Shown here in pieces: positions 19,773 through 21,717 of a DNA stretch of 64,000 bases. Source of the DNA: Escherichia phage dune; sequence record MN850636.1, one strand, 5' to 3'. Position numbers and translations under genes: made by a program. Positions within the stretch are counted from its first letter, which is position 1; every line of letters begins with the position of its first letter. The notes beneath the pieces are model-generated. The model saw only the letters and a program-made list of their open reading frames with translations, ran no database searches and was not told where the DNA came from.

Positions 19773-19778
19773 AAGTTG

Positions 19779-19806
19779 TTGACATAGAAAATTTGGTGAG
19801 TATACT
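19779..19806 (+). promoter_or_regulatory. Sigma70-like promoter (TTGACA-16 nt-TATACT)
   Basis: Consensus -35 at 19779-19784 and -10 at 19801-19806, immediately after ligase stop. Confidence 0.5.
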
Positions 19807-19836
19807 GAGCAGCATAAACCAACGGGTACTCACCAG

Positions 19837-19875
19837 CATCACTTAAGAGTCTTTTAAAAGGGTTTTTAAGTGATG
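19837..19875. repeat. 10-bp inverted repeat CATCACTTAA(N19)TTAAGTGATG (copy 1)
   Basis: Palindrome seen directly; near-identical copy at 21366-21404. Confidence 0.6.
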
Positions 19876-19882
19876 TGTAGCT

Positions 19883-19956
19883 CGGTCAGGTATGGTGCGG
19901 TGGTGTAAGGTGGTGTCAGGTGTAGTATGGTGCTGTGATGTGAGGTATGGGTAGTT
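19883..19956 (+). repeat. GT-rich tract of short GGT-containing repeats (region A, tract 1)
   Basis: ggtatggtgcggtggtgtaaggtggtgtcaggtgtagtatggtg... Confidence 0.6.
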
Positions 19957-19982
19957 AGTCTCAGCTACATTAAAATGAGACT
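19957..19982 (+). repeat. Hairpin family member: AGTCTCA-gctacattaaaa-TGAGACT
   Basis: 7-bp stem; loop shared with 21339-21366 copy whose stem differs by compensatory changes. Confidence 0.65.
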
Positions 19983-20019
19983 CACCTTTTTAAAAGGCCT
20001 TTTAAGAGGGTCTTTTAAT

Positions 20020-20079
20020 GAGGTGGGGTGGTGTAAGGTGGTGTAAGGTCTGGTTCGGTGTGTCGCGGTAAGGGTGGAT
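20020..20079 (+). repeat. GT-rich tract (region A, tract 2)
   Basis: ggggtggtgtaaggtggtgtaaggtctggttcggtgtgtcgcggtaagggtgg. Confidence 0.6.
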
Positions 20080-20105
20080 GGTAGTAGCCACGTTAAAAAT
20101 CTACC
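20080..20105 (+). repeat. Hairpin family member: GGTAG-tagccacgttaaaaat-CTACC
   Basis: 5-bp stem with related loop. Confidence 0.5.
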
Positions 20106-20181
20106 AAGTTTCTAAAGAGTCTTCTGTTGAGGGTTCTTTACAAACAACTTAACAATCAACTAAAGTGTGGAGCTAAATGCT

Positions 20182-20769
20182 ATGAAACTGTTAAATATCA
20201 AAATCACTGGTACTCGTCCTTTCCTGAGCCATAACGATACGCTGTCAGACCCATTAAACCCTCTGACAAAATATCACAAGTCTCTGTCCAGTAAGCGTAA
20301 AAAGACTGACGAAGACTATGCGCTCTTAGCAGAAAGCCAACTGGTAACTTCTTGTTACTACGATGAGCAACTTGGTTTTGTTATGAACGGTGAGATGATT
20401 GAGGCTTGTATCAAGTCTGGTGCAAAACTCAACAAACTTGGTAAGGTAATTGACCGAGCCATTATGCTGACAGATGTAGTCTTCCCAATGACTATCAAGA
20501 ACTGTCCAGCAAACCCACAAGAACTTGCTAAGAATCCAGACTTTATCTATGCTAAGTCTGTTAAGATTGGTACAGCACGAGTTATGAGCTACCGTCCAAT
20601 CTTCCGTGACTGGTCTGTAGAGTTTGGTTTGATGTTTGATGAAGAGCAAATCACCAAAGAGGAACTTCTGATGGTTCTGGAAAATGCTGGTAACCTTTGT
20701 GGTGTAGGTGATTGGCGTCCACGCTTTGGTCGTTTTTCTGTAGAAGTTATTTCAGAAGGTAACGTTTAA
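20182..20769 (+). CDS. Hypothetical protein (195 aa), first gene of repeat-flanked cassette
   Basis: ORF track; in-frame ATG 20182 after GTGGAG RBS. Confidence 0.55.
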
Positions 20770-20771
20770 TT

Positions 20772-21212
20772 ATGAATACAAAAGCATTAGCAGCAAAGTT
20801 CAGTTACGGTGACACTGTATCACATTCTGAGATGGACACCTTCTTAGGTATTGTGAAGCCAACTTATCAAGGTGACATTGTTAAGTACGAAGATGAAATG
20901 AAGGCTTACGCACTGACACGGTTAAATCGACTTGAGAAGTTTATTGAGAAGCTTCTTAAAGAAGAGAAGATTTATCTGGTTGCTTCAATGGGTGTTGGTT
21001 ATCGTGTGGTTGAACCTAAGCATCAAGCAACTATTGCAAAACGCAAAATGTCTGGTAAAATTGGTCGTGCTTTAAAGCAAGCCACTCAAGCGATTGAGAA
21101 TGTGAACACTATGGCGCTTAGCCATCAAGAACGTTCACGACTGATTGAACAGCAAAACCACTTAGCTGCTATGAAAGCTAACATTAATAAGCAACGTAGA
21201 AAACCTTTCTAA
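20772..21212 (+). CDS. Hypothetical protein (146 aa), second gene of repeat-flanked cassette
   Basis: ORF track. Confidence 0.55.
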   Translation: MNTKALAAKFSYGDTVSHSEMDTFLGIVKPTYQGDIVKYEDEMKAYALTRLNRLEKFIEKLLKEEKIYLVASMGVGYRVVEPKHQATIAKRKMSGKIGRALKQATQAIENVNTMALSHQERSRLIEQQNHLAAMKANINKQRRKPF

Positions 21213-21223
21213 GTTGACTAGGT

Positions 21224-21246
21224 AGCCTCTTCGGAGGCTCCTTTTT
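21224..21246 (+). terminator. Rho-independent terminator (AGCCTC-TTCG-GAGGCT + TTTTT)
   Basis: Perfect stem, tetraloop, T-run; same hairpin core as 4430-4447. Confidence 0.6.
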
Positions 21247-21259
21247 AAAAGGTCTTTAA

Positions 21260-21336
21260 ACAGGGTCTTTTAATGAGGTACGGCGCGGTTAGGTAAGGTC
21301 TGGTAGGGTAGGGTGAGGTTTGGTAAAGTGCGGGTA
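21260..21336 (+). repeat. GT-rich tract (region B, tract 1)
   Basis: ggttaggtaaggtctggtagggtagggtgaggtttggtaaagtgcgggtag. Confidence 0.6.
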
Positions 21337-21338
21337 GT

Positions 21339-21366
21339 TAATCGGAGCTACATTAAAATCCGATTA
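21339..21366 (+). repeat. Hairpin family member: TAATCGGA-gctacattaaaa-TCCGATTA
   Basis: 8-bp stem; loop identical to 19957-19982. Confidence 0.65.
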
Positions 21367-21404
21367 CATCACTTAAGAGTCTTCTAAGAGGGTTTTTAAG
21401 TGAT
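21366..21404. repeat. 10-bp inverted repeat CATCACTTAA(N19)TTAAGTGATG (copy 2)
   Basis: Palindrome seen directly. Confidence 0.6.
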
Positions 21405-21406
21405 GT

Positions 21407-21470
21407 TCGGTAGGGTCTGGTAGGGTAAGGTCTGGTCTGGTAGGGTCTGGTAGGGTGAGGTATGGGTAGT
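21407..21470 (+). repeat. GT-rich tract with tandem GGTCTGGTAGGGT units (region B, tract 2)
   Basis: tagggtctggtagggtaaggtctggtctggtagggtctggtagggtgaggtatgg. Confidence 0.65.
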
Positions 21471-21471
21471 T

Positions 21472-21497
21472 AGTCTCAGCCACATTAAAATGAGACT
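21472..21497 (+). repeat. Hairpin family member: AGTCTCA-gccacattaaaa-TGAGACT
   Basis: 7-bp stem, same stem as 19957 copy. Confidence 0.65.
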
Positions 21498-21539
21498 TAC
21501 CTTTTTAAAAGGTCTTTAAACAGGGTGTTTTAATAAGGT

Positions 21540-21599
21540 GCTGTATGGTGGGGTAAGGTAGGGTTAGGCGAGGTCAGGTGAGTTTTGGTATGGAAGGAT
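21540..21599 (+). repeat. GT-rich tract (region B, tract 3)
   Basis: gctgtatggtggggtaaggtagggttaggcgaggtcaggtgagttttggtatgg. Confidence 0.55.
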
Positions 21600-21625
21600 G
21601 GCAGTAACCTTATAAAAAATCTGCC
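21600..21625 (+). repeat. Hairpin family member: GGCAG-taaccttataaaaaat-CTGCC
   Basis: 5-bp stem with A-rich loop. Confidence 0.45.
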
Positions 21626-21644
21626 AAATAAGCTATAAAGTCTG

Positions 21645-21673
21645 TTGACAAGTCAGGTGTTATAGCTTATTTT
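21645..21673 (+). promoter_or_regulatory. Possible sigma70-like promoter (TTGACA-17 nt-TATTTT)
   Basis: Consensus -35; weak -10 at correct spacing; precedes ORF 21718. Confidence 0.35.
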
Positions 21674-21717
21674 TATACTCAACGTAATACAAAATTTAAT
21701 ATAACTTTGAGGTCATT

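Follow-up and report, generated by a model that had tools for sequence, protein, structure and literature searches.

Escherichia phage dune (sequence record MN850636.1) is a Felix O1-like myovirus (Felixounavirus), and the stretch analyzed here, referred to as the window, covers 64,000 nucleotides of one strand. At positions 19,773 to 21,717, the window holds two genes, vipr (20182-20769, +) and vap1 (20772-21212, +), together with five repeat modules, two upstream of the gene pair (19837-20106) and three downstream (21238-21626), all on the plus strand. Each module consists, from 5' to 3', of an AT-rich hairpin spacer of ~40 nt, a Y-N-N-G-G tract of 50-75 nt and a conserved pseudoknot of 34-35 nt, and the modules recur with a period of ~131 nt. 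We consider it almost certain that the locus is a type II VIPR (Viral Interference Programmable Repeat) system of the SUSP1 clade, composed of five guide-RNA genes (vrRNAs), vipr and vap1. Loci of this type are already known from 2026 preprints and a PDB entry, and the present one is not new as a discovery.

VIPR is described in two 2026 bioRxiv preprints from one group (10.64898/2026.04.26.720920 and 10.64898/2026.04.26.720927, cited below as.720920 and.720927) as a minimal RAMP protein, Vipr, with an accessory protein, Vap, flanked by vrRNA genes of ~100 nt. According to these preprints, a vrRNA comprises 9-16 YNNGG units in which GGY is conserved and NN hypervariable, followed by an invariable 3' tail that forms a pseudoknot in the SUSP1 clade. 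Vipr polymerizes with one protomer per unit, burying GGY and displaying NN; the displayed dinucleotides pair with double-stranded DNA (dsDNA), skipping one target base between dinucleotides, and the R-loop triplex represses transcription (.720920,.720927). For the SUSP1 clade, 18 of 20 natural targets are reported to belong to a satellite phage carried in E. coli genomes (.720920,.720927). SUSP1 is itself a Felix O1-like phage.

The hallmarks of type II VIPR recur in the source phage: a Vipr RAMP with its GGY-contact residues, an adjoining vap1, flanking YNNGG vrRNAs, a pseudoknot tail, targets read with a 1-nt skip and, within the window, no self-target at 80% or above. Computed here were the protein identities, the RAMP fold, the conserved GGY and hypervariable NN positions, the covarying tails and the 1-nt-skip matches.

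Vipr, Vap1 and the vrRNA arrays

The vipr gene encodes a 195-residue, Cas7-like RAMP predicted from its PDB match and fold to bind the GGY motifs of the vrRNAs. In a PDB sequence search, its product matched chain 36pp_D, entitled 'SUSP1 Vipr protein' (E 6e-128), and the two sequences agree at 191 of 195 residues (98%). All eight GGY-contact residues checked (H17, E71, M72, R138, C173, D177, W178 and R179) are conserved at the same positions as in SUSP1. Position 175 is a valine in the source phage and the PDB chain alike; the preprint text gives T175. An AlphaFold2 (AF2) model built with 53 homologues reached a predicted local distance difference test score (pLDDT) of 95, and the 50 PDB fold matches listed for it are all type III or type VII CRISPR (clustered regularly interspaced short palindromic repeats) effector complexes, Csm3 included. 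Among these 50, 31 have E <= 0.001, with E values down to 8e-5, probability 1.0 and a template-modeling (TM) score of about 0.5.

The vap1 gene begins 3 nt past vipr and encodes a 146-residue VIPR accessory protein, 99.3% identical to the product of the gene that follows vipr in SUSP1. Its homologues for alignment form only three clusters. A single-sequence AF2 model is weak (pLDDT 68), and a Foldseek search with it returned no significant match, the non-significant top matches being winged-helix regulators. Vap1 is possibly a winged-helix DNA binder; the weak model is compatible with the 'WH-like' label of the preprint and is not proof of it. Similarity between Vap1 and the second gene of a distant VIPR locus was not significant.

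Pfam, PHROGs and NCBIfam assigned no named family or function to either protein, and Pfam and NCBIfam no Cas family; an Rfam scan of the window at gathering thresholds returned 23 tRNA matches only, no Rfam 15 model matching the vrRNAs. With VIPR genes and RNAs unnamed in these databases, such loci will keep appearing as unexplained repeats, which is how this one was flagged in an earlier reading of the sequence alone. That sequence-only reading treated both proteins as being of unknown function and proposed a database comparison, and the 36pp match of Vipr together with the vap1 gene of SUSP1 now identifies the two.

A 3.5-kb query spanning the locus matched 259 phage records at 80-96% identity, and almost all of these belong to Felixounavirus. 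One related locus (L018) encodes the exact PDB 36pp sequence and carries one vrRNA upstream and three downstream, as published for SUSP1. Relatives of vipr in viral contigs fall into 18 Felixounavirus loci that are nearly identical and six more distant loci, with identities of 37-40%. Several of the distant homologues have in-phase GGY arrays beside the gene and on the same strand, and in one case (L026) a similar pair of genes has arrays on either side of it and also between its two members. The presence of GGY arrays beside distant homologues as well suggests that the protein and a 5-nt-periodic RNA or DNA act as a functional unit.

The five vrRNAs, all on the plus strand, each join a GT-rich tract of strict 5-nt period to a tail of one of two types. 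Upstream of vipr, vrRNA1 (19876-19982) has 15 YNNGG units (19876-19950) and a tail A pseudoknot (19949-19982), and vrRNA2 (20019-20106) has 11 units (20019-20073), the first of them inside a spacer hairpin of form Q, and a tail B pseudoknot (20072-20106). Downstream of vap1, each vrRNA has 12 units: vrRNA3 (21274-21365) pairs a tract at 21274-21333 with a tail A at 21332-21365 carrying the stem-2 variant AATCGGA/TCCGATT; vrRNA4 (21406-21497) pairs a tract at 21406-21465 with a tail A at 21464-21497; and vrRNA5 (21534-21626) pairs a tract at 21534-21593 with a tail B at 21592-21626 carrying the variants AAGG/CCTT and TGGCAG/CTGCCA. Tracts of the source phage count 10-15 units each.

These arrays stand out from the rest of the window. 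Windows of 60 nt with at least seven GGT are concentrated at the locus, the sole other plus-strand case (16621-16680) lying within an open reading frame (ORF), and on both strands of the window, runs of at least eight in-phase GGY-NN units occur at the locus only and on the plus strand only. The motif that the sequence-only reading called a hairpin, GGTAGTTA..GCYACATTAAAAT, which forms part of the conserved element of 34-35 nt, occurs in three copies against 0 expected. The strict 12-nt core of the AT-rich segment, TTTTAAAAGGYC, has three exact copies, all within the locus; allowing one mismatch raises the count in the window to seven (1.4 expected), of which four fall at the locus. The palindrome CATCACTTAAG...CTTAAGTGATG is found at 19837-19875 and 21367-21405. 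The repeat tracts, hairpin, AT-rich segment, palindrome, promoter and two ORFs that had been reported are all present where they were placed, and the repeated modules stand, refined here to five with a strict 5-nt tract period. The suspicion that these repeats exceed simple promoters and terminators was also well founded, the GGY-NN runs being locus-specific and belonging to vrRNA genes, as was the proposed functional tie between the repeats and the ORFs they bracket, which pairs the vrRNAs with vipr and vap1.

To describe the family, 92 vrRNAs (79 unique) from 21 Felixounavirus loci (L001-L020 and the source phage) were aligned on the tail. Over the 79 unique vrRNAs, the two G positions of the unit are conserved at 0.82 and 0.97 and Y at 1.00 (T 0.90, C 0.10), and the two N positions carry ~0.25 bit each. 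Tail A (GGGTAG-TT-AGTCTCA-G-CTAC-ATTAAAA-TGAGACT) and tail B (GGGTGG-A-TGGTAG-TAG-CCAC-GTTAAAAAT-CTACCA) both fit an H-type pseudoknot and are near-invariant across the 21 loci. In tail A, three pairs of stem 2 show compensatory double changes with G-U intermediates and stem 1 never varies; in tail B, two compensatory pairs fall in stem 1 and one in stem 2. Overall, 98.6-99.5% of cells are paired, a share that drops to 24-50% on sliding the partners. Covariation support for the tails, as read from these alignments, is real but shallow, consisting of few events among close relatives. The tail of vrRNA2 is identical to that of SUSP1's single upstream vrRNA (vrRNA1, tail B), and the 3' pseudoknot of SUSP1 vrRNA1 has been resolved by cryo-electron microscopy (.720920,.720927). 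Tail type follows position in all 21 loci: each array ends in a vrRNA with tail B, and internal vrRNAs have tail A. The tail B variants of the upstream and downstream arrays differ and are mutually compensated.

Guides and their predicted satellite targets

When the locus was compared by BLAST with 5,426 complete E. coli genomes, 55 chromosomes contained an 86-nt stretch matching vrRNA2. The match sits in an island of ~12 kb, inserted in a DUF72 gene beside yecD; the island has genes for a serine recombinase, for tape-measure and baseplate proteins and for an HNH endonuclease, as well as small ORFs. Related islands were found in 568 E. coli genomes, and the island agrees with the satellite of the VIPR preprints. 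Satellite-bearing strains include EC12 (NZ_CP070229), CT01 (NZ_CP081791) and 08-3914 (NZ_CP034808). The satellite's baseplate protein is 75% identical to the product of a phage gene at 34437-35204 (-), and its tape-measure protein 28% identical to that of 35873-37453 (-).

The NN dinucleotides of the five vrRNAs were compared with 13 satellite island variants (218 kb), allowing 0-3 skipped bases between dinucleotides; the match threshold was 80% of NN positions and the null was given by shuffles of unit order (n=200). Four of the five guides match a satellite at 88-93% of NN positions, and they do so with a skip of 1 only. The vr1 guide (GT TC CA AT GC GG AA GG CA GT AT GC GA GA AT) matches the satellite tape-measure gene at 28/30, an example of the predicted target sequence being TTATCACAGATGGCTGGTAAGGGTCAGGTTATGGCTGAAGAGCT, and the vr2 guide (GA GG GG AA GG AA CT TC GT GC AA) matches the same gene at 20/22. 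The vr5 guide (AA GC AT GG AA AG TA GA CA GA TT AT) reaches 22/24 in a gene for a 128-residue hypothetical protein, and the vr3 guide (GA AC GC TA AA CT AG AG GA TT AA GC) reaches 21/24, or 21/22 without its first unit, in an intergenic region between two minus-strand genes of one satellite (L035). For the vr4 guide (TC AG CT AG AA CT CT AG CT AG GA AT), the best score is 18/24, which is within background, and it has no target in the 13 satellites.

Shuffled guides gave maxima of 23/30 for vr1, 18/22 for vr2, 19/24 for vr3 and 19/24 for vr5, and skips of 0, 2 or 3 gave at best 20/30 for vr1 and 16-18 of 22-24 for the other guides. In all three coding matches, the pattern starts at codon position 1, placing the skipped base at codon position 3 (wobble); the preprints likewise report the skipped base at the wobble position (.720920,.720927). 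The same preference holds family-wide, with 30 of 55 automatically parsed guides from the 21 phages reaching at least 80% with a skip of 1, against 0, 0 and 1 with skips of 0, 2 and 3. Within the window, no guide matches at 80% or more of NN positions, the best self-matches being 70-71%. The analysis adds one natural VIPR locus with five decoded guides, whose predicted targets lie in two satellite genes, encoding the tape-measure protein and a small hypothetical protein, and in an intergenic region. It also provides an independent computational replication of the 1-nt-skip code, the guides having been analyzed apart from the preprints' target predictions.

The best self-match of vr1 (21/30, under the 80% threshold) falls at 36363-36406, in the phage's own tape-measure homologue, and vr1 appears to discriminate the satellite allele from the phage's own gene. 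An exact-pattern scan of IMG/VR with vr3 gave no match. Scanned in the same way, the vr4 guide gave a single match, 23/24 in an IMG/VR viral contig (L034, 3300013800_000029) at 8927-8955 (-), in an ORF for a 92-residue signal-peptide protein. This match is probably due to chance because the contig is dissimilar to phage records and E. coli genomes and the skip falls at codon position 1.

The satellite in the EC12 chromosome carries a vrRNA of its own (L027, 14915-15125) and no vipr gene. This vrRNA has a consensus promoter (TTGACG..TATAAT), a leader of ~45 nt, 12 YNNGG units, a tail B like the phage's through ...CTACC and an intrinsic terminator. A satellite-borne vrRNA copy is present in 55 E. 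coli genomes. The EC12 case agrees with a remark in the preprints that satellites encode vrRNAs (.720920,.720927).

If the locus works as the SUSP1 preprints describe, it would be transcribed to yield vrRNAs of ~100 nt, each a run of 10-15 YNNGG units ending in a 3' pseudoknot. Vipr, with one protomer per unit, would then assemble into a helical filament in which GGY is sequestered and NN displayed, and NN would pair with one strand of dsDNA, skipping every third base, the target having the form (NNx)n. The R-loop triplex formed at such a target would block transcription. We infer that the phage would thereby silence a satellite that parasitizes it, and that the AT-rich hairpins may be the maturation signals of the array transcript.

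Several observations weigh against reading the locus as an active VIPR system, or narrow what supports it. The sources describing VIPR are preprints, and in them the expression of vrRNAs (~100 nt), their co-purification with Vipr and the repression of targets are shown experimentally for SUSP1 only (.720920,.720927). Expression, processing and silencing in the source phage are carried over from SUSP1, the evidence from the phage itself being computational. The vrRNA4 guide is left with a best score of 18/24 and no target among the satellites scanned, which are 13 of 568 matching E. coli genomes, and the self-target check covers ~64 kb of a genome of roughly 88 kb. Finally, a terminator-like GC hairpin with a T run stands between vap1 and the downstream array (21224-21249, +), its T run overlapping the start of the next spacer hairpin, and transcription of that array would have to get past it.

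Related systems and alternative readings

SUSP1 provides the closest comparison, being of the same genus, with Vipr 98% and Vap1 99% identical, and sharing the YNNGG design, pseudoknot tails, flanking arrays and 1-nt-skip matches to satellites. The source phage differs in having two upstream and three downstream vrRNAs, against one and three in SUSP1, and guides are largely phage-specific (79 of 92 distinct). Among class 1 CRISPR-Cas systems, in which Cas7 or Csm3 assembles on CRISPR RNA (crRNA), there is a common RAMP fold with an RNA-recognition motif (RRM) core, G-loop and thumb, as well as one protomer per fixed RNA step, periodic base flipping and a variable guide joined to a conserved handle. 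The differences are considerable: the locus lacks a repeat-spacer array as well as cas1, cas2 and any other cas gene, and VIPR is phage-encoded, reads two of five guide bases, against five of six in CRISPR, and addresses a dsDNA target with a 1-nt skip. We know of no acquisition machinery for VIPR. In place of the identical direct repeats of 23-55 nt, contiguous spacers and cas genes by which a CRISPR locus is recognized, the locus has modules of ~131 nt with a 5-nt-periodic variable part.

Seed and colleagues (Nature, 2013) reportedly found that the lytic phage ICP1 carries a CRISPR-Cas system whose guides match PLE, a Vibrio cholerae satellite that parasitizes ICP1. The two cases are alike in that a phage-borne, RNA-guided system is aimed at a chromosomal satellite. 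ICP1 employs a canonical type I-F CRISPR-Cas, which takes up new spacers and degrades DNA, whereas VIPR relies on a single RAMP and silences transcription. At the level of RNA reading, TRAP on the trp leader RNA of Bacillus is an oligomeric protein that reads a trinucleotide every ~5 nt along the RNA. The likeness lies in a protein oligomer on a trinucleotide repeated about every 5 nt; TRAP differs in forming a closed ring, in acting by attenuation and in having uninformative spacer bases, whereas in VIPR the spacer bases are the information. VIPR is a class of RNA-guided DNA recognition that has been reported only recently, and the preprints propose it as an ancestor of the CRISPR RAMP effectors (.720920,.720927).

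The cassette is variably present among relatives. DNA of vipr and vap1 was found in 117 phage records, compared with 260 that carry the neighboring ligase, and 143 of these 260 ligase-bearing relatives show no vipr and vap1 DNA. Felix O1 (NC_005282, a Salmonella phage; L041, 4637-4920) is without both genes, and the space between its ligase and the next operon holds only the promoter, a single P hairpin and one 11-unit vrRNA with an intact downstream-type tail B. To judge from this arrangement, Felix O1 lost vipr and vap1 by deletion between repeated modules. The comparison of presence and absence, which the sequence-only reading had recommended, was informative. Against E. coli satellites, the orphan guide of Felix O1 scores 16/22, which is background level and carries no information, since the host is Salmonella. 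More speculatively, the orphan vrRNAs kept by relatives without vipr, Felix O1 among them, may act in trans with Vipr that a co-infecting phage provides.

These data bear on the functions first proposed for the repeats. As a replication origin, the locus would use a promoter-driven G-rich transcript as an R-loop primer, its AT-rich palindromes as an unwinding element and its repeats as initiator-binding iterons. A strong promoter does fire into a tract whose non-template strand is rich in G, with AT-rich elements behind it, and the locus lies among replication genes (ligase, polymerase). However, GC skew has no inflection at the locus, the cumulative skew turning with gene orientation at ~14, 25 and 56 kb, and the units are only 5 nt long and hypervariable between close relatives at two of five positions, whereas an iteron origin has conserved repeats of 17-22 bp by an initiator gene. 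The two proteins are a RAMP and an accessory protein, not initiators, and it is unlikely that an essential origin would be missing its cassette in the 143 relatives named above and be reduced to one module in Felix O1. An origin is hardly credible on this evidence.

A DNA-level array bound by proteins, whether as regulator operators, a packaging (pac) signal or the recombination borders of a mobile cassette, is very improbable. It would account for the palindromic AT-rich elements and for sub-repeats of ~13 nt (CTTTTAAnnAGGgT), both enriched at the locus; a helix-turn-helix (HTH) regulator gene lies downstream (22278-22607), and the cassette is variably present, with a deletion between modules in Felix O1. 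Against operators or a packaging signal, the palindromes keep G-U and U-G pairs, three of them invariant, which are A-C mismatches on the other strand. Since such pairs are possible in plus-strand RNA only, the symmetry of the spacers is a property of RNA and not of a duplex-DNA operator, and the compensatory changes likewise indicate a folded plus-strand RNA. All elements lie on one strand, and the guide-target matches account quantitatively for the GGY/NN tracts. With respect to mobile-cassette borders, the expectation of recombination is borne out by the deletion between modules in Felix O1; loss by recombination between repeats does not make those repeats mobility signals, and borders as their function find no such backing.

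The source phage might instead hold a decaying, non-functional VIPR remnant, a reading that we also regard as improbable. In several units of vrRNA1 and vrRNA2, the first G is degenerate (TG or AG), vrRNA4 is without an identified target and Felix O1 demonstrates that the locus can decay. Yet both ORFs are intact with their contact residues conserved, the tails and promoter are intact, the first G is just 82% conserved family-wide, and vrRNA1, which has the most degenerate units, also has the best target match (28/30). A TRAP-like ring, two-tier G-quadruplexes, primase sites, Chi-like sites and antisense Rho-loading tracts were dropped as candidates, the PDB and target matches explaining the pattern.

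Spacer hairpins, promoters and neighboring features

In the locus as a type II VIPR system, the AT-rich elements ahead of each vrRNA tract take two related forms, P (CATCACTTAAGAGTCTT.TAAGAGGGTTTTTAAGTGATG) and Q (ACCTTTTTAAAAGGTCTTTAA.AGGGTCTTTTAATGAGGT), both of which as RNA fold into hairpins of 14-19 bp. Form P corresponds to the palindrome of the sequence-only reading, and form Q to its conserved AT-rich segment. Form P occurs on the plus strand at 19837-19875, directly 5' of vrRNA1 (16-19 bp; -18 kcal/mol, z -6.4), and at 21367-21405 (-19.7 kcal/mol, z -6.8). Form Q occurs on the same strand at 19983-20025 (-23.3 kcal/mol, z -6.3), 21238-21280 and 21498-21540, the last two with z about -2. 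Their order in the 21 loci is regular, with P following TCCGATT-type tails and Q following TGAGACT-type tails. Fifteen variants of the P hairpin show four G-U/U-G wobble pairs, of which three never vary, and a single covarying pair. The pairing of P and Q leans on mostly invariant G-U and U-G pairs, substitutions being few and mostly pairing-neutral; evidence from covariation is thin because the elements are so conserved.

We tentatively suggest, as a possibility that is far from assured, that the spacer hairpins are maturation signals of the arrays. They would be sites at which an enzyme specific for double-stranded RNA, such as RNase III of the host, cuts the polycistronic transcript into unit vrRNAs, and tails A and B would mark internal and terminal units. 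The satellite's lone vrRNA has no spacer hairpin, which fits an array-specific role. In other VIPR types, hammerhead ribozymes are reported between vrRNAs (.720920,.720927); no description of spacer hairpins, a positional tail rule, the Felix O1 orphan vrRNA or type II array processing was found in the preprint text examined. Two other roles for the spacers were rejected: they contain no convincing -35/-10 pair of a sigma-70 promoter, by scan or by eye, and no U run follows the hairpins as in a terminator.

A sigma-70-type promoter (TTGACA-16-TATACT, 19779-19806, +), matching the consensus at 11 of 12 positions, lies 5' of the first vrRNA array and vipr-vap1. It is kept in 19 of 21 related loci, and the annotation of phage AYO145A lists it as a promoter. 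An 8-bp inverted repeat, GGTGAGTA ... TACTCACC (19794-19834), spans the -10 element of this promoter and the leader before the first spacer hairpin and is conserved in related loci. A second promoter (21645-21673) serves the next operon. A perfect 13-bp inverted repeat, AAATAAGCTATAA / TTATAGCTTATTT (21626-21638 and 21660-21672), brackets its -35 element and overlaps its -10 element, and this repeat may be an operator; the HTH regulator gene mentioned above lies nearby, at 22278-22607. Elsewhere in the window, the 23 tRNA matches are clustered at 49158-53978 (-), as is typical for Felix O1-like phages.

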